In this document: positions 10,918-16,797 of the stretch, in pieces
Layout: each line of letters opens with the position of its first letter
Numbering within the stretch: position 1 is the stretch's first letter
Assembly: GCA_046485285.1 (NCBI GenBank)
Contig: JAWOHE010000046.1
Span: 1 to 18,000, forward strand
From: a bacterium
Lineage (GTDB): Bacteria > Hydrothermota > Tepidihabitantia > Tepidihabitantales > Tepidihabitantaceae
Direction: 5' to 3'
Length of the DNA: 18,000 nucleotides
Translations under genes and position numbers: made by a program
Notes under the pieces: model-generated
Seen by the model: the letters and a program-made list of their open reading frames with translations, nothing else
Told to the model about the DNA's origin: nothing
Database searches by the model: none

Positions 10918-11931
10918 ATGACTGAGGACACACCCGCGGTCTCGGTCGTCATCCCGCTCTACAACAAGGAACGCCACGTCGCGCGGGCGGTCCGGTCGGT
11001 GCTCGGTCAGACCTTCGGCGACTTCGAGCTCATCATCGTCAACGACGGCTCGACCGACGGCAGCGCCGAAAAGGTCCGCGCCTTCGACGACCCGCGCATC
11101 CGCCTGCTCGCCCGCGAGCACGTCAACAGCGCTGGCGGCCACGCGGCGAGGAACCTCGGCATCGCCGAGGCGCGCGCCGACCTCGTCGCCTTTCTCGACG
11201 CTGACGACGAGTGGCTGCCGGATTATCTGCAGACTGTTGTTTCACTTGTTGGCAAATTCCCCGATGCCGCAGCTTGGTCAACTACCTACTATCGAATCTC
11301 CCCGGACGGAATCCTGGATGAGTGGCAGCCAAAGCTCTCGATTCTGGAAGGCGACCGCAGTGCCGGAATCGTCGACATCTTCCCCCATAACTCAAGACCA
11401 TTCTGTACCGATTCCATAGTTATTTGGAAGGATGCCCTCGTCTCCATCGGGGGATTCCCGGAGGGCGTGGCGAACGGCGGAGACGTCGATACGTGGTACA
11501 GGTTGGCATTTCGCCATCGCATAGCGTGTCACGCGAAGCCTAAGGTCAAGTATTACAGGAATGCGGTTAACCGTATCGATGAAAGAGACTGCGTTTGGGT
11601 GGGGGTTCGGCCATACTTCAATAGCCTTCGGGAATTCATGCGTGAAAAGGGAGGCCAAGGCGAAGTGCTGGAGGGCGTAGTCGATTCCATCATGAGGCAA
11701 CACTATTCCTGTTTCAAGTCGAATTTGGACGCGGGTAACCGCACCGCTGCACTGCGAGTAGCCTGTGACTTCGTGCGTATGAAGGGGTTCGCCTCTCAGG
11801 GTCTTGCCATGATGCTCGCCAGTCTTCCGCCATCTTGGCTTACCCGTCCACTACTGCAGTTGAGGAGATTCATCAAGTACCGCAGCTGGGGACGGCCGGA
11901 GACTGGCAGGATTCGCAGAATCTACCCTTGA
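10918..11931 (+). CDS. Glycosyltransferase family 2 (GT-A)
   Basis: VSVVIPLYNKE, IIVNDGSTDGS, AARNLGI, AFLDADDEW, IGGFPEG, GGDVDTWYRL; purine-rich RBS upstream. Confidence 0.93.
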   Translation: MTEDTPAVSVVIPLYNKERHVARAVRSVLGQTFGDFELIIVNDGSTDGSAEKVRAFDDPRIRLLAREHVNSAGGHAARNLGIAEARADLVAFLDADDEWLPDYLQTVVSLVGKFPDAAAWSTTYYRISPDGILDEWQPKLSILEGDRSAGIVDIFPHNSRPFCTDSIVIWKDALVSIGGFPEGVANGGDVDTWYRLAFRHRIACHAKPKVKYYRNAVNRIDERDCVWVGVRPYFNSLREFMREKGGQGEVLEGVVDSIMRQHYSCFKSNLDAGNRTAALRVACDFVRMKGFASQGLAMMLASLPPSWLTRPLLQLRRFIKYRSWGRPETGRIRRIYP

Positions 11932-11932
11932 A

Positions 11933-12968
11933 ATGGCTGCGGCAACCTGCCCAATATCCGTCGTCATCCCGCTCTATAACAAGGTCAACCACATCCAGCG
12001 GGCCCTGGACTCGGTCCTGGCGCAGGCGTTCCGTGACTTCGACGTCATCGTCGTCAACGACGGCTCTACCGACGGGTCGGAGAGGATTGTCGGGAGTTGC
12101 ACCGACCCTCGGGTCCGCCTTGTCCATCAGCCGAACGCCGGGGTCAGCGCCGCCCGCAACCGGGGCATAGCCGAGTCCCGCGCCGACCTCGTCGCCTTCC
12201 TCGACGCCGACGACGAATGGCTGCCCGCGCCTTCGGCGCGGGGCAGAGGAGAAATTCCTTCTGGATTCCGGGACGGACTCCCGGCGCGCAGCGCCGGGGT
12301 TCCTCGCCGCCATCATCGGCCTCCGCCGGGAGTTCCCGGACTGCGGGGCCTACGCCACCGCGCGCTCTGTCGTCGAGCCGGAGGGCCGGCGCTGGGCCCC
12401 CATCTTCACCGGCATCCCGGCGCCGCCCTGGGAAGGAATCATCCCCAACTACTTCCATTCCGCCGACGAGTTCCCCGTCTGCTCGTCGGCGGTGGCCGTG
12501 CCCCGGGCCGTCCTCGACGCCGTCGGCGGGTTCCCGGTCGGTGTTGCCTACGGCGAGGACACCGATACCTGGTGCCGGATTGCCCTGCGCTACCCGATTG
12601 CCTTCAACAGCCGGCCGCTCGCGGTCTATCACAAGGACGCCGACGAGCGGGCCTGCGACCGCGTGCGGCCGCTGGAGCACCCGATCATCAGGACGCTCGA
12701 GGCCGCGATCGCTGCCGGCGCCCTGCCCCCGGGCGTGCCGGTCGAGGACCTGGTCGAGTACAGGAACAGGTGGCGCATCCACGCCGCGGTAGCCTGCCTC
12801 CGCGCCGGGCTTCGCCCGGAAGCCAGGACCCACCTCCGCGCCGCGGCCTCGACCCGGCGCTATCGCGCCGAGTGGCGGCACCTGCGTCTCCGTTCCCGGG
12901 TCCCGGCACCGCTGTGGAACTGGGCCCGGCAGGTCAGGCTGTCCATCGTGAGGAACGCCCGTGCTTGA
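11933..12968 (+). pseudogene. Glycosyltransferase family 2 interrupted and frameshifted by a 70-bp insertion
   Basis: The N-terminal frame gives ISVVIPLYNK...AFLDADDEWLP. The GT2 sequence resumes in the +1 frame as PGFLAAIIGLRREFPDCGAYAT...VCSSAVAVPRAVLDAVGGFPVGVAYGEDTDTWCRIALRYPIAF, with its stop at 12968. Removing 12226-12295 restores DDEWLPGFL. Confidence 0.88.
12226..12295. mobile_element. 70-bp double-hairpin intragenic insertion (REP/MITE-like)
   Basis: Hairpins cccgcgcc-ttc-ggcgcggg (12224-12242) and cccggcgc-gca-gcgccggg (12280-12298); GCC is repeated at both junctions (12223-12225, 12293-12295). Confidence 0.75.
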
Positions 12969-12978
12969 GCAGTTCGGG

Positions 12979-13007
12979 TTGTGCGGCCGGCTGAATTCGG
13001 CTACGCT
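12979..13007 (+). promoter_or_regulatory. Possible internal promoter for the asnB-like gene
   Basis: TTGTGC (12979-12984), 17 nt, TACGCT (13002-13007), 10 nt before ATG 13018; no SD. Overlaps the hairpin ggctac-gct-gtagcc. Confidence 0.4.
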
Positions 13008-13017
13008 GTAGCCCGAT

Positions 13018-14787
13018 ATGAAGCCGGAGCAGATTGCCATTGCTCTCTCGCTCGACCGGGGCTTCAGCTGGCGCCATCACGTCCGGGACGGCGCGGAAGC
13101 CTGGGCCAAGGGGTATGCCTTCCACGCCGGCCGCTACTGCGACTCCGCCGGCCTCGCCGCACTGCTCGGCGAGGCCGCCCGGCAGCGGCCCGCGGCGGAC
13201 CTCGCCGGGGTCGTCCGGGAGCTCAACGGCTGTTTCGCGGTCGTCGTGCGCGACGGCGATACGGTCTTCGCCGCCGTTGACCGCCTGCGCAGCATCCCGC
13301 TCTTCTACACCGCCGAATTCGGGGACACAACCGACTTATCCCCAACTCGGATTGTGTTTCCGAATTCCGGTTCGGCGCGTAGCGCCGGAGGCCGGTTCAG
13401 CCTCGCCGACGACGCTTTCCGGTTGCGGGAGCAGGCCGGCGACACCGGCCTTGACCCGGTTTCCGAGGCCGAGTTCCTGAGGTACGGCTACGTCCTCGGC
13501 CGGGAGACGCTGTCGCCGTCGGTCAAGCAGTTACAGCCCGGTGAGTACCTTGTCGCGCATCCCGGAGGAATCGAACCCGGGTTCTACTACCTTCACACCC
13601 ATGGCAACTACCTTGACCTGCCCGAATCACGGCACTTCGACGAGCTGGACGCGATGTTCGAGGGCGTCTTCCGCCGGCTCCTCGACTCGGTCCGAGGCCG
13701 GACCATCGTCGTACCGCTGAGCGGCGGCTACGACTCGAGGTACATCGCCGTGATGCTGAGGAGCCTGGGCTGTGAGAAGGTCATCTGCTACACTTACGGC
13801 CGGGCCGACAGCTACGAGGTGGCGATGTCCCGCAGGGTGGCGGAGAAGCTGGGCTATCCGTGGCACTACGTCGAGTACGACCGGGACGCGTGGCAGGAGT
13901 ACCTCCGGTCCGAGGAGGCGGCCGAGTATGGCGCGTTCGCCGGGAACCTCGCGTCGCTTCCGTGCCTGCAGGAGAGCATAGCCGTCCGGGCGCTCCGGCG
14001 CGGCTCGACGGTCCCGGACGACGCGGTGTTCGTCCCCGGCTACTGCGGCGCGACCGGGTTCCCGGTCCCGGCCGGCGGGCCTGCCCACGCCCAGTCAGGC
14101 GGGCGGCTCACTCCGGAGCTCGTCCGGTACATCTTCGACGAGAACTTCCGGCTCGCCAACCCCATCCCGAAGACCGCCGCCCGGCGCGTCAGCGAGCATC
14201 GGGCCGAGACGCTGCGCGACTACTCCTCAGGCGACGGGATCGATGGTGTCATCAGCGCCAACGAGGCCTGGTTCACCGCCCACCGGCTCACGAGGTTCAT
14301 CGTCAACGCCGTGCGGTTCTACGAGTTCAATGGCTACGAGTGGCGCCTGCCGCTGTGGGACAGCGAGCTGACCGAGCACTGGTACCGCGTGCCGGAGAGC
14401 CTCAGGGCCGACCGGCGGCTCTACGAGGACTACCTCTTTCGCCGCGTGTTCCCGCCGCGCGGCCTGGACTGGCGGAAGCCCGTGAAGCGCCGCGGCCGGC
14501 CCGCCGGTCTCGCCCGGCGCGTCCTGAAAACCATCTTGCCGGCGCGGGCGCTCCGGGCCGTCCGGCGCGGCCGGCCCGCCGACGATGTCAACGCCTTCAC
14601 CGAGGCCTCCCGCCTGTTGCGTGACGACCTCGGCCCGGGGCGCGTCATCCCCGAGGTGACGGACGTGAGCGTCGCCTACGCGGTGTGGTTCATCCAGGCC
14701 CTGAAAGACGCGCAGTCCGCCGGGGAAGTCGCTCCGCGCCGACTCGGCCCGCGCCGGAGCATCCGGCCGCCAGGGGGTGGAGAATGA
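13018..14787 (+). CDS. Asparagine synthetase-related (AsnB-like) amide ligase
   Basis: LNGCFAVV, AAVDRLRSIPLFY, GYVLGRETL..SVKQLQPGEYL, PP-loop VPLSGGYDSR, CYTYG, EWRLPLWD. No N-terminal catalytic Cys. Confidence 0.88.
   Translation: MKPEQIAIALSLDRGFSWRHHVRDGAEAWAKGYAFHAGRYCDSAGLAALLGEAARQRPAADLAGVVRELNGCFAVVVRDGDTVFAAVDRLRSIPLFYTAEFGDTTDLSPTRIVFPNSGSARSAGGRFSLADDAFRLREQAGDTGLDPVSEAEFLRYGYVLGRETLSPSVKQLQPGEYLVAHPGGIEPGFYYLHTHGNYLDLPESRHFDELDAMFEGVFRRLLDSVRGRTIVVPLSGGYDSRYIAVMLRSLGCEKVICYTYGRADSYEVAMSRRVAEKLGYPWHYVEYDRDAWQEYLRSEEAAEYGAFAGNLASLPCLQESIAVRALRRGSTVPDDAVFVPGYCGATGFPVPAGGPAHAQSGGRLTPELVRYIFDENFRLANPIPKTAARRVSEHRAETLRDYSSGDGIDGVISANEAWFTAHRLTRFIVNAVRFYEFNGYEWRLPLWDSELTEHWYRVPESLRADRRLYEDYLFRRVFPPRGLDWRKPVKRRGRPAGLARRVLKTILPARALRAVRRGRPADDVNAFTEASRLLRDDLGPGRVIPEVTDVSVAYAVWFIQALKDAQSAGEVAPRRLGPRRSIRPPGGGE
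13315..13386. mobile_element. 72-bp palindromic in-frame intragenic insertion
   Basis: gaattcggggacacaa-ccga...tcgg-attgtgtttccgaattc long imperfect palindrome (13315-13367) followed by the hairpin cggcgc-gta-gcgccg. CGCCG is repeated at 13311-13315 and 13383-13387; the element is AT-richer than the host gene. Confidence 0.75.
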
Positions 14788-15365
14788 CCGTGCTCAAGAA
14801 AATCGGCAAGTCAGTCCTGCGTCCGCTGGTCCCCCGGTCCTGGCGCCTGCAGGCCCGGCTGATGGGCTGGCGCAAGTGGCTCACCTACTTTCTCTTCCAG
14901 CGCATCCTGCGCGCCAACTCCTCCGTGCCCTGGCCGGTCCACTGGGCCTCCTCGGTATCCTCGCCCAGGTGGGGCCGGCTCGATTTCAAGACCGACCGCC
15001 GCTTTCCCGGCTACATGCCCGGCCAGTACATCCAGGCGATGAATGGGATAGTCCTCGGCAACAACGTGCTGATGGGCCCCGGTGTCAAGCTGATATCCGC
15101 CAGCCACAACCTCTGCGACTACGACGTCCACGACCCCGCTGACCCCATCGTCATCGGCGACAACTGCTGGCTCGCGGCGGATGTGATCGTCCTGCCCGGG
15201 GTCCGGCTCGGCAACCACGTCGTGGTCGCGGCCGGGTCGGTGGTGACGAAGAGCTTCGCCGAGAATGACATCCTGATTGCCGGCGTGCCGGCCCGTGTCA
15301 TCAGGAAGCTGGGGCCTTACGTCGGGAAGTCGCGGCCCGCGCCGGCATCCGGGGAGCCCGAGTAG
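14784..15365 (+). CDS. Hexapeptide-repeat (LbH) sugar O-acetyl/acyltransferase
   Basis: Start ATG 14784 by ATGA overlap; GIVLGNNVLMGPGVKLISASH, PIVIGDNCWLAADVIVLPGVRLGNHVVVAAGSVVTKSF, AGVPARVIR. Confidence 0.92.
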   Translation: MTVLKKIGKSVLRPLVPRSWRLQARLMGWRKWLTYFLFQRILRANSSVPWPVHWASSVSSPRWGRLDFKTDRRFPGYMPGQYIQAMNGIVLGNNVLMGPGVKLISASHNLCDYDVHDPADPIVIGDNCWLAADVIVLPGVRLGNHVVVAAGSVVTKSFAENDILIAGVPARVIRKLGPYVGKSRPAPASGEPE

Positions 15366-15378
15366 CCGGGAGAGCCGC

Positions 15379-16797
15379 TTGAAGATACTGATGGTCTGCA
15401 CGCCCTTCCCGCCCTACAACAACATCGGCGGCGTCCGAACCGGCAAGATGGCCAAGTATCTGCACCGGGCCGGGCACGACCTGCGCGTGATTACCCTGCG
15501 GAACCAGCCCAAGCCTGTCGCCCTGCACCTTGAAATACCGCTCGAGTGCGTCACCTACGCCCCGTGGTTCAGTCTCGACGCCGCTTTCAGGCCGACGGCC
15601 GGGCGCGGACTCGGCGGGCTGGCGCGCGGCCTGACCCGGGGGCTCCGGCCGCTCGAGGACGCCGTCGCCAGCTATGCCGCGAATCCGATTGACCGCCCGG
15701 GGCCGACCACGGGCAGTCCCGGGCCCTCGGCTGGCTCTCACGCCCGGCCGGCCGCGGCGGGCGGGCCGCGAAAGCGGCGCGGGCTGCGGCGTCACCTCGG
15801 CGCGCTCGCCTCGTTCCCCGATCCGCTGGTCGGCTGGTACCCGTTCGCCTGCCGCGCCGCCCTTCGCATCTCGGGCGACTGGCGGCCGGACGTCATCTAC
15901 GCTAGCTCTCCCGGCCCGACGGGCCTGCTGGTCGCGCACGCCGTCGCGGCCCGCCTGGGCGTGCCCTGGGTCGCCGAGTTCCGCGACCTCTGGATGGACC
16001 ATCCCGCCCAGGATTGGCCCGGCTGGCGACAGCGCCTCGGCGAACGGCTCGAACGGACCACGCTGAGCACTGCCGAGGCCCTCGTCGCCGTTTCCGAACC
16101 CGCGGCGGACCTGCTCCGGCGCAAGTTCGGCAGAGACACATTCGTCGTCACCAACGGCTTCGACCCGGCCGACTTCCCGGCCCGGCCGGTGGTGCCGTTC
16201 CGTGACGGCTCGCTCCGAATCGTCCACACCGGCGAGCTCTTTGCCGGCGGGCGGACCCCTGCCCTGCTCTTTGCCGCCCTGTGCGGCCGGGAGGACCTTA
16301 CCCGGAGGATACGGGTCGCGTTCTACGGGTCGCCCGAGACCCTCGCCCTCGCCGGCAGCCTCGCCCGGGCTCACGGGGTGGCGGCCGTGGTCGAGCTCAT
16401 CCCCTCGATTCCGTACCGTGAGTCCCTGCGGGTCCAGTCCGAGGCCGACGTCCTGCTCCTGCCGCTGTGGGATGACCCGAAGGTGCGGGGCTGGCATTCG
16501 GGCAAGTTCTTCGAGTACATCGGCGCCCGCCGTCCCATCCTTGCCACCGGCCCGGCCACGGACGTGGACGCAGAGGTGATCCGGGCGCGGCGGCTGGGCG
16601 TCGTGCTGGACGACCCGGCGCAGGTCGCCCGGCTCCTCGAGGAGTGGGTCCGCGTCAAGGCGCGCGAAGGCTTCCTGCCGTCACCGCCGGCCGAGGCCGC
16701 GGCCGGGTTCACCCGGGAAGAGCTGGCCGGTAAGCTGGAGAGCGTCCTGCTCGCGGTGGCAGGCCCGCCTGCCGGGGCGCGGTCAGGCCGGTCTTGA
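15379..16797 (+). CDS. Glycosyltransferase family 4 (GT-B)
   Basis: Probable TTG start at 15379 after GGGAGAG; KILMVCTPFPPYNNIGGVRTGKMAKYL, PDVIYASSPG, PWVAEFRDLW, VTNGFD, IVHTGEL, ADVLLL, SGKFFEYIGARRPIL, FTREELAGKL. Confidence 0.92.
   Translation: MKILMVCTPFPPYNNIGGVRTGKMAKYLHRAGHDLRVITLRNQPKPVALHLEIPLECVTYAPWFSLDAAFRPTAGRGLGGLARGLTRGLRPLEDAVASYAANPIDRPGPTTGSPGPSAGSHARPAAAGGPRKRRGLRRHLGALASFPDPLVGWYPFACRAALRISGDWRPDVIYASSPGPTGLLVAHAVAARLGVPWVAEFRDLWMDHPAQDWPGWRQRLGERLERTTLSTAEALVAVSEPAADLLRRKFGRDTFVVTNGFDPADFPARPVVPFRDGSLRIVHTGELFAGGRTPALLFAALCGREDLTRRIRVAFYGSPETLALAGSLARAHGVAAVVELIPSIPYRESLRVQSEADVLLLPLWDDPKVRGWHSGKFFEYIGARRPILATGPATDVDAEVIRARRLGVVLDDPAQVARLLEEWVRVKAREGFLPSPPAEAAAGFTREELAGKLESVLLAVAGPPAGARSGRS

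Follow-up and report, generated by a model that had tools for sequence, protein, structure and literature searches.

Two genes of one bacterial polysaccharide cluster each contain a short palindromic segment, which raises the question of whether the segments are copies of a mobile element and, if so, of what kind. The genes lie in an 18,000 nt stretch of contig JAWOHE010000046.1 (C71 in this analysis), referred to here as the window. One encodes a family 2 glycosyltransferase (GT2) and holds insert 1. The other encodes an asparagine-synthase-related (AsnB-like) protein and holds insert 2. The gene content of the window is that of a polysaccharide cluster of the ABC-transporter type. The source metagenome-assembled genome (MAG) is 2.34 Mb in size with a GC content of 69%, is 88% complete and consists of 102 contigs of short-read type. 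It was coded G000 and compared to 40 relatives, including four genomes of the same genus. An earlier note on this DNA had proposed that both inserts belong to a family of gene-invading elements of ~70 bp. A family of short non-autonomous elements was found and insert 1 is a member, but most copies are longer and carry a further 5' hairpin, and insert 2 is not a second copy. The favoured reading, considered likely, is that insert 1 is a short-form copy, of recent date, of a non-autonomous repeat with several hairpins that is specific to the lineage and present at ~40 places in the genome, and that insert 2 is a related mosaic. Mobilisation by an HUH enzyme resembling the REP-associated tyrosine transposases (RAYTs; REP, repetitive extragenic palindrome) is the inferred part of this reading.

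The right ends of the two inserts are alike, as had been claimed. Positions 12282-12297 read CGGCGCGCAGCGCCGG and positions 13373-13388 read CGGCGCGTAGCGCCGG, which match at 15 of 16 positions, while TTCTGGATTCCGG and TTCCGAATTCCGG match at 11 of 13. This end motif is more frequent than chance would give in GC-rich DNA. With up to one mismatch it was found four times in the window against 0.18 expected, and none of 200 shuffles reached four. The exact 14-mer CGGCGCGYAGCGCC occurred 11 times in the genome, nine times at the 3' end of copies of a repeat family, once in insert 2 and once in an unrelated place (C84). A hairpin with a 7-bp stem, CCGGCGC-NNN-GCGCCGG, occurred 28 times, 27 of them within the family, compared to 0-9 times for nine control stems of equal composition.

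An nhmmer profile was built from the nine copies bearing the 14-mer, and a covariance model (CM) was built afterwards. The profile gave 37 copies at E < 0.1 and the CM gave 39 matches at E ≤ 0.001. Copies range from ~75 to 110 nt and the full unit is ~100-110 nt. Its order is hairpin H1 (CCCGGCGGCC..GGCCGCCGGG), AAGCC, hairpin H2 (GCGCC-TTC-GGCGC), a variable central hairpin, GGATTCCGGAACGGACTCC and the terminal hairpin H3 (CGGCGCG-NNN-CGCGCCGGG). The GGATTCCGGAACGGACTCC segment is nearly invariant among copies. Subfamily variants of the central hairpin read GAGAGG-TT-CCTCTC. With three to four hairpins per copy, the family is a dispersed multi-copy palindromic repeat. Most copies include H1; the short forms without it include insert 1, a copy in a molybdopterin (Mo) oxidoreductase gene and a copy at xseB. 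The H3 loop varies (GCA, GTA, GGA, GAA, GAC, GTT, GTG), so the end module common to both inserts stands in part but the conserved GYA loop ascribed to it does not. The 32 best copies had a median pairwise identity of 0.78 and a median nearest-neighbour identity of 0.89. A search of Rfam at E ≤ 10 over positions 11800-13800 returned no family near its gathering score, the best being asponA with 20.9 bits against 113.

The copies are clustered, with 15 neighbouring pairs less than 10 kb apart compared to 4.2 such pairs on average, and never more than 11, in 2000 simulations. On contig C61 five family copies, three of them nearly identical, lie within 11 kb (G000:C61:10105-20848), which suggests local hopping or a regional hotspot. 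Open frames were also frequent: 176 of 222 frames through the copies were open compared to 140.6 ± 6.8 for random genomic segments (maximum 160, 200 trials). The copies share ancestry, and the depletion of stop codons is therefore really a property of the consensus.

Insert 1 is 70 nt long. Full-length GT2 homologues have 321 residues, equal to the 98 and 223 residues encoded on its two sides, and run through ...DADDEWLPGFLA... without a gap across the LP|GF junction. This was therefore a clean insertion of exactly 70 nt that shifted the frame, a frameshift the earlier note had not mentioned. The boundary is ambiguous by 1-3 nt. The only trace of the GT2 in the protein collection is a 156-aa fragment call (P0123). 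On a metagenome contig where the GT2 and AsnB-like genes are adjacent (~60% identity) both sites are empty at the DNA level, the GT2 site reading TGG CTG CCC GAT TTC. Insert 1 has an identity of 0.89 to its nearest relative in the family. The GT2 was most likely inactivated by this frame-breaking copy. It had been suggested that such elements diversify glycan enzymes, and this was not borne out, since the GT2 is frameshifted and the family strikes housekeeping genes genome-wide.

Positions within genes were called with a map of codon usage and a search for spanning frames. Ten of the 37 copies were located in open frames with a coding signal on both sides, eight in sense and two in antisense orientation. 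With the frame-breaking GT2 copy the total is at least 11 of 37 (~30%). The other 26 had no clear intragenic position, and both orientations were seen between genes. Nine of the ten host open reading frames (ORFs) have Pfam families, and the copy lies inside or between their domains. The host families are a GcvP subunit, a molybdopterin oxidoreductase, Ddl, a TPR protein, a CCA/poly(A) polymerase-type enzyme, an M23 peptidase, Fpg/MutM, a ferredoxin-domain protein and an aminotransferase.

Orthologues of the eight sense cases were sought in five genomes, four from the same genus and one from another. In all eight cases they aligned on both sides and did not contain the segment, which together with the GT2 and AsnB-like homologues agrees with the empty sites that the earlier note had expected. 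Codon alignments with orthologues gave a clean insertion of 114 nt in Fpg, a clean insertion of 93 nt in Ddl at GAC CAG^CCG GTG, and ~29 extra residues in the aminotransferase. Loops of 24-38 residues are added to housekeeping enzymes in this way. The antisense copy in the TPR gene could be compared to orthologues only to a limited degree because its N-terminus is poorly conserved, and that in the Fer4 gene lies 121 nt before the stop codon, at a gene junction. At xseB a copy and a partial arm of the insert 2 type fill the first 45 codons of the longest reading frame, which may be coding or may lie between genes. The M23 peptidase gene (G000:C53:23101-24642, locus L029) holds two family copies. 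Orthologues do not have the internal one. The other lies at the 3' end, in a region where matches to orthologues break off or meet stop codons, and the open frame may have been lengthened there.

An intron, bypass or RNA-removal reading was raised by the GT2 frameshift and was set aside, as at least eight of the nine sense intragenic copies are in frame. An in-frame excess of sense copies is predicted by selection on translated insertions and not by removal from RNA. Insertion followed by selection for frame-compatible copies is well supported. The copies carry few stop codons in any frame, and copies whose length is a multiple of three would survive in coding DNA as peptide loops in the manner of the Rickettsia palindromic elements (RPEs). 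Sense copies outnumbered antisense copies within genes (nine to two) and between co-directional genes (nine to five), although these orientation counts are only suggestive.

In a CM search of the 40 relatives 34 had no match. One same-genus genome had eight diverged copies, one genome of another genus had seven, and four genomes had one each. Three of the four same-genus genomes had no copies. The copies in relatives keep the layout of three hairpins with changed stems, and five of the 14 examined were flagged as in frame inside ORFs, a flagging made from ORFs alone. One of these, a weak match in a relative of another genus (L039, G015:C11, ~1501-1631), keeps the frame of a P-type ATPase-like ORF (...LTGESLPVEK...[insert]...GTSVASGTA...), and its inserted peptide ends in DSRRFAPG, as do peptides in G000. 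The named records with related repeats bear the label WOR-3, as does the host lineage, which is free-living and uncultured. The exact 26-nt family core had no match in 185,579 species genomes and none in JGI metagenome contigs, scans that may omit the window's own genome. The possibility was also considered that an assembler misspliced repeats into genes. The MAG is in 102 contigs, but at least eight in-frame, stop-free copies in conserved genes, each with its own variants, are not expected from assembly errors, and diverged copies in independent assemblies of relatives behave alike. An artefact of this kind is highly improbable.

A repeat of another kind was seen in OY729431.1, a MAG labelled Vicinamibacteria, Acidobacteriota (L083-L117, alignment A3). 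This ~190-nt multi-hairpin repeat ends in the 24-nt module GGATTCCCGGCGCG-NAG-CGCCGGG and was matched more than 25 times, in part as tandem arrays that repeat every ~248 nt (L106). The shared module is there partly by construction, having been searched for; its place as the terminus of a high-copy repeat of another phylum is not.

The ends of the element bear on how it moves. Both ends carry hairpins, which would fit single-strand mobilisation of the HUH type. The word GCC^GG is found at the target and at the 3' end in GT2, AsnB and Ddl. At clean sites no target-site duplication was visible beyond 1-4 ambiguous nt, and this too would fit an HUH enzyme, as would the shared word, the excess of sense copies and the motif link to the RAYT-like gene. 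The earlier note had the terminal hairpin completed by target bases, but 25-28 of 31 copies have the 3' GGG concerned irrespective of their flank, and it may belong to the element itself. The proposed course of events is that the RAYT-like HUH enzyme acts in trans and mobilises the copies as hairpins of single-stranded DNA, which enter at GCC^GG without target duplication and may hop locally.

A classical MITE (miniature inverted-repeat transposable element) would account for some of these features. It would be a deletion derivative of a DDE-type insertion sequence (IS) with short terminal inverted repeats (TIRs; CCCGGCG...CGCCGGG), whose transposase gene is missing from the 88%-complete MAG. 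The end hairpins do begin and end with the same 7 nt, inverted, IS copies are often unassembled in MAGs, and the copies are clustered. The ambiguous nt at clean sites, however, are also bases of the element ends, and short forms without H1, and thus without the left 'TIR', were still inserted (GT2, Mo-oxidoreductase). The pairing of TIRs with a target-site duplication is absent, as only 7 nt are common to the end hairpins. The MITE explanation is weakened by this, no search for DDE families having been made in the genome, and is unlikely.

Insert 2 has a different structure (Table 1). It is 72 nt long, as 16 of 16 aligned AsnB-like homologues confirm. The closest homologues without it are 63-66% identical. 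The query used found no AsnB-like orthologue in the 40 relatives, and protein and metagenome homologues (~60-66% identity) served instead; the empty site in the metagenome homologue reads TTC TAT GGT GCG CGC GGC GGC. The left parts of both inserts are palindromic as had been stated, and both fold as hairpins with DNA parameters (-29.2 kcal/mol for an 80-nt stretch with insert 1, -26.0 kcal/mol for a 92-nt stretch with insert 2). The left 53 nt of insert 2 fold into one long hairpin, and family copies end in the same 16-17 nt as it does. Against the family profile it gave only E = 0.7, over the right end alone. As judged from sequence, insert 2 is outside the family and consists of a 17-nt motif in an inverted doublet, to which the family terminal hairpin is joined. 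An inverted REP-like doublet forming a long hairpin, as in REPINs, was found in insert 2 only.

In an AlphaFold model of the AsnB-like protein (mean predicted local distance difference test score (pLDDT) 80.8, predicted template modelling score 0.84) residues 103-123 have a pLDDT below 50 and are flanked by confident strands at 96-100 and 126-130. A low-pLDDT stretch between two confident beta-strands is what a tolerated loop insertion should look like in such a model. Insert 2 was the sole inserted peptide modelled for surface-loop placement. The homologue P0008 has its own short insert, REEGGARSE, in the same loop (alignment A1, columns ~182-190), and the loop therefore tolerates insertions repeatedly.

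Among the 14 other window ORFs that were scanned, none matched a transposase family, in agreement with the statement that the window holds no mobilising gene. The genome has a single Y1_Tnp gene, matched best in NCBIfam by 'REP-associated tyrosine transposase' and lying between 26-nt inverted repeats with the core TTC(C)GGGGACRYAA; the arms of insert 2 carry (G)AATTC-GGGGAC-RYAA. The core GGGGACRYAA occurs eight times in the genome, six times with the TTC prefix; these six are the two RAYT-flanking inverted repeats, two single copies, the xseB fragment and insert 2. The same inverted motif flanks the RAYT-like gene in two relatives: in one, of another genus, the gene is intact, and the other is a same-genus genome. 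At two other loci no exact match was found, and one of these loci ends at a contig edge. The RAYT-like gene flanked by the motif that the earlier note proposed to look for does exist in the genome, but its flanking motif is the left palindrome of insert 2 and not the GYA-loop hairpin. A single-copy RAYT-like gene between inverted repeats was thus seen for the GGGGAC motif of the insert 2 arms and not for the abundant family. Beside one of the single GGGGAC motifs, near a contig end (G000:C61:36760-36900), CTGTAGGAGCGACATCCCTGTCGCG occurs twice, ~110 nt apart; it could mark a further repeat family or the border of a CRISPR-like array.

A further possibility considered was that insert 2 has no relation to the family: it would be a loop of the AsnB-like protein, specific to the lineage, and its terminal GC hairpin and ATTCCGG match would have arisen by chance in 69%-GC DNA. 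The profile E value of 0.7 agrees with this, as does the near uniqueness of insert 2, which had one short partial match in the genome and one in the 40 relatives (BLAST, G014:C61, E = 4.3e-4). The exact 14-mer also occurs once by chance elsewhere (C84), and in P0008 the same loop holds a short insert unlike this one. It is nevertheless very unlikely by chance that an insertion would end exactly on a 16-17-nt identity to the family terminus 1.1 kb from a family copy. A second partial arm of the insert 2 type with an H3-like hairpin lies directly behind the family copy at xseB, and the arms share the TTC-GGGGAC-RYAA motif with the RAYT flanks. An unrelated origin of insert 2 is held to be quite improbable.

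Several observations weigh against the favoured reading of a non-autonomous repeat moved by the RAYT-like enzyme. The Y1 protein scored 58.5 bits with NF047646, below the curated RAYT cut-off of 80 (IS200 model 17.7 bits). The similarity between insert 2 and the RAYT inverted repeat spans only ~17 nt. No autonomous partner was found, and no family copy lay beside Y1 genes at the six loci searched, the best score being 12.3 bits (E = 0.011, L136). Y1 genes occur in 15 of the 41 genomes, including all three same-genus genomes without family copies, and over the 41 genomes Y1_Tnp presence and family abundance were not correlated. In G000 a 74-nt tandem duplication, perfect to 99%, shifts and splits the RAYT-like gene (C44, locus L022, 1791-1938), and is either an inactivation or an assembly artefact. 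Within the genome compensatory changes were seen in none of 20 hairpin pairs, the copies being too alike for this to be telling. The 70-nt length of insert 1 could conceal a 1-nt assembly error, because the MAG is of short-read type in 102 contigs and was checked without reads. The reconstructed sites fit the shared target GCC^GG of the earlier note, but the ends of the element are inseparable from GC-rich target bases. At two of the five codon-aligned sites native sequence was replaced, 99 nt standing in place of 12 native nt in GcvP and 75 nt in place of a variable stretch of ~48 nt in the Mo-oxidoreductase, which simple transposition does not predict.

Such replacement would be at home in a structural repeat of the kind of REPs and bacterial interspersed mosaic elements (BIMEs), without active transposition. 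Its modules would spread by recombination, gene conversion or repair-templated patching and serve as terminators or mRNA stabilisers, the intragenic copies being accidents of break repair. The mosaic build from hairpin units and the 26 of 37 copies not clearly intragenic are in keeping with this. On the other side stand the clean, loss-free insertions at GT2, Ddl and Fpg, the intragenic share of ~30%, the expansion in one genome with none in three of four same-genus genomes, and the occurrence of both orientations between genes. Spread without transposition is rated as quite unlikely, and the mobile non-autonomous repeat is retained.

A more far-reaching version of that reading is doubtful. 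In it, the RAYT-like HUH enzyme would mobilise mosaic cassettes, each of variable palindromic cargo and a conserved terminal hairpin with a GNA loop, into GCC^GG. Being nearly stop-free, the cassettes would routinely enter coding DNA and seed peptide loops throughout the proteome, as an intragenic system of the REPIN type. If this were true, the terminal hairpin would be a recognition module common across phyla, given the Vicinamibacteria repeat with the same 24-nt end.

Table 1. Features of the two inserts and their host genes (positions in the window).
Feature	Position	Strand	Basis
GT2 glycosyltransferase gene, 5' part, 98 codons, ends ...LDADDEWLP	11933..12226	+	Pfam Glycos_transf_2 E = 3.6e-29, profile positions 1-93; aligns to N-terminus of 321-aa homologues
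Hairpin H2 of insert 1 (CCCGCGCC-TTC-GGCGCGGG)	12224..12242	+	DNA fold; conserved in family alignment
Insert 1, 70-nt short-form family copy without 5' hairpin H1	12227..12296	+	nhmmer E = 5.8e-18; CM 95.1 bits; homologue junction LP|GF
Central variable hairpin of insert 1 (AGAGGAG...CCTTCT), G-T wobble on + strand	12244..12263	+	DNA fold
Family core GGATTCCGGGACGGAC(TCC), nearly invariant	12264..12279	+	Family alignment columns
Terminal hairpin H3 of insert 1 (CCGGCGCG-CAG-CGCCGGGG), module common to insert 2	12280..12298	+	Motif counts, DNA fold
GT2 gene, 3' part, 223 codons and stop, +1 frame relative to 5' part, starts GFLAAIIGL...	12297..12968	+	Homologue alignment
Asparagine-synthase-related (AsnB-like) gene, 589 aa, open through insert 2	13018..14787	+	Pfam Asn_synthase; 459 homologues
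Insert 2, 72 nt, in frame, residues 100-123 (EFGDTTDLSPTRIVFPNSGSARSA)	13315..13386	+	Missing from 16/16 aligned homologues
Long hairpin of insert 2, two inverted copies of (G)AATTCGGGGACACAA, REPIN-like doublet	13315..13367 (arms 13315-13334 and 13347-13367, 12-nt loop)	+	DNA fold; alignment with RAYT-flanking inverted repeats
Terminal hairpin of insert 2 (TTCGGCGCG-TAG-CGCCGGA), the family's H3 module	13371..13389	+	DNA fold; 17/17 identity to family copy C59:12768-12784

Elsewhere in the window, 240 residues of a GT4-type glycosyltransferase ORF (15277-16797) span 152 positions of the Glyco_trans_4_4 profile, which may reflect a further insertion or an over-long ORF call.

In-frame invasion of genes by palindromic elements has been treated as a Rickettsia curiosity, its mechanism unknown since 2000, and the same behaviour is now seen in an unrelated free-living lineage of high GC content. 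The WOR-3 repeat has features that make it tractable: empty sites verified in orthologues, long and short forms, a fresh frame-breaking copy, and a sequence link to a conserved RAYT-like gene as a concrete candidate enzyme. It also matters for annotation, as the repeats split gene calls (the GT2 as a 156-aa fragment) and add loops to housekeeping enzymes of uncultured bacteria. Literature searches with general terms, made without the name WOR-3, found no such elements in WOR-3, which is no proof of their absence in print.

Among known systems, the BIMEs of enterobacteria are extragenic mosaics of palindromic units and linker motifs in variable combinations. The WOR-3 repeat resembles them in its mosaic build, whereas their extragenic position differs and their units are unrelated to it in sequence. 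Palindrome-associated transposable elements (PATEs), derived from IS200/IS605, carry a subterminal hairpin at each end, lack a clear TIR or target-site duplication, and insert beside a short specific target. The end hairpins, the lack of a clear TIR or target-site duplication, and YGCC at the target and the 3' end of the element are alike here; an IS200/IS605 copy with the ends of the WOR-3 repeat, in contrast, was not found. Enterobacterial repetitive intergenic consensus (ERIC) sequences and other small mobile sequences of enterobacteria are described as MITE-like repeats with open frames that are occasionally in genes (Delihas 2007, as cited in the excerpted text of PMC10969869). In the WOR-3 repeat, intragenic copies are a major fraction and were checked against orthologues.

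REPs and REPINs with their RAYTs, as portrayed in excerpts of PMC3337134, PMC3116915 and PMC5581495, share with the present system the GC-rich hairpins, the inverted doublet with spacer seen in insert 2, and a single-copy RAYT-like gene flanked by inverted motif copies and conserved in relatives. REPs are extragenic by definition, however, whereas at least 11 of 37 WOR-3 copies are intragenic. The abundant WOR-3 family also does not flank the RAYT-like gene, and inspection by eye showed neither a terminal GTAG nor a CGTC tag.

RPEs are about 150 bp long and form ten families, with 44 insertions in R. conorii, nearly half of them in ORFs (PMC10969869, in the part excerpted). Like the WOR-3 repeat they are short palindromic multi-copy repeats (about 100-150 bp), a large share of which lie in frame in unrelated metabolic or housekeeping genes and add a peptide, and no transposase is identified for them in that excerpt (PMC10969869), nor was one for the WOR-3 repeat. 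In-frame, stop-free copies in coding genes, with orthologues that do not have the segment, were found here as for RPEs. The host of RPEs, in contrast, is an AT-rich obligate intracellular alphaproteobacterium, while that of the WOR-3 repeat is a free-living, uncultured lineage with 69% GC. The WOR-3 repeat also differs in its GC-rich REP-like hairpins, its long and short forms and its motif link to a RAYT-like gene. At 69% GC a homology to RPE-1 to RPE-10 is implausible, a judgement made from composition. In its behaviour the WOR-3 repeat is closest to RPEs and in its build to REPs, BIMEs and REPINs, and it is a member of neither group by sequence or definition, not being a REP because REPs are extragenic.

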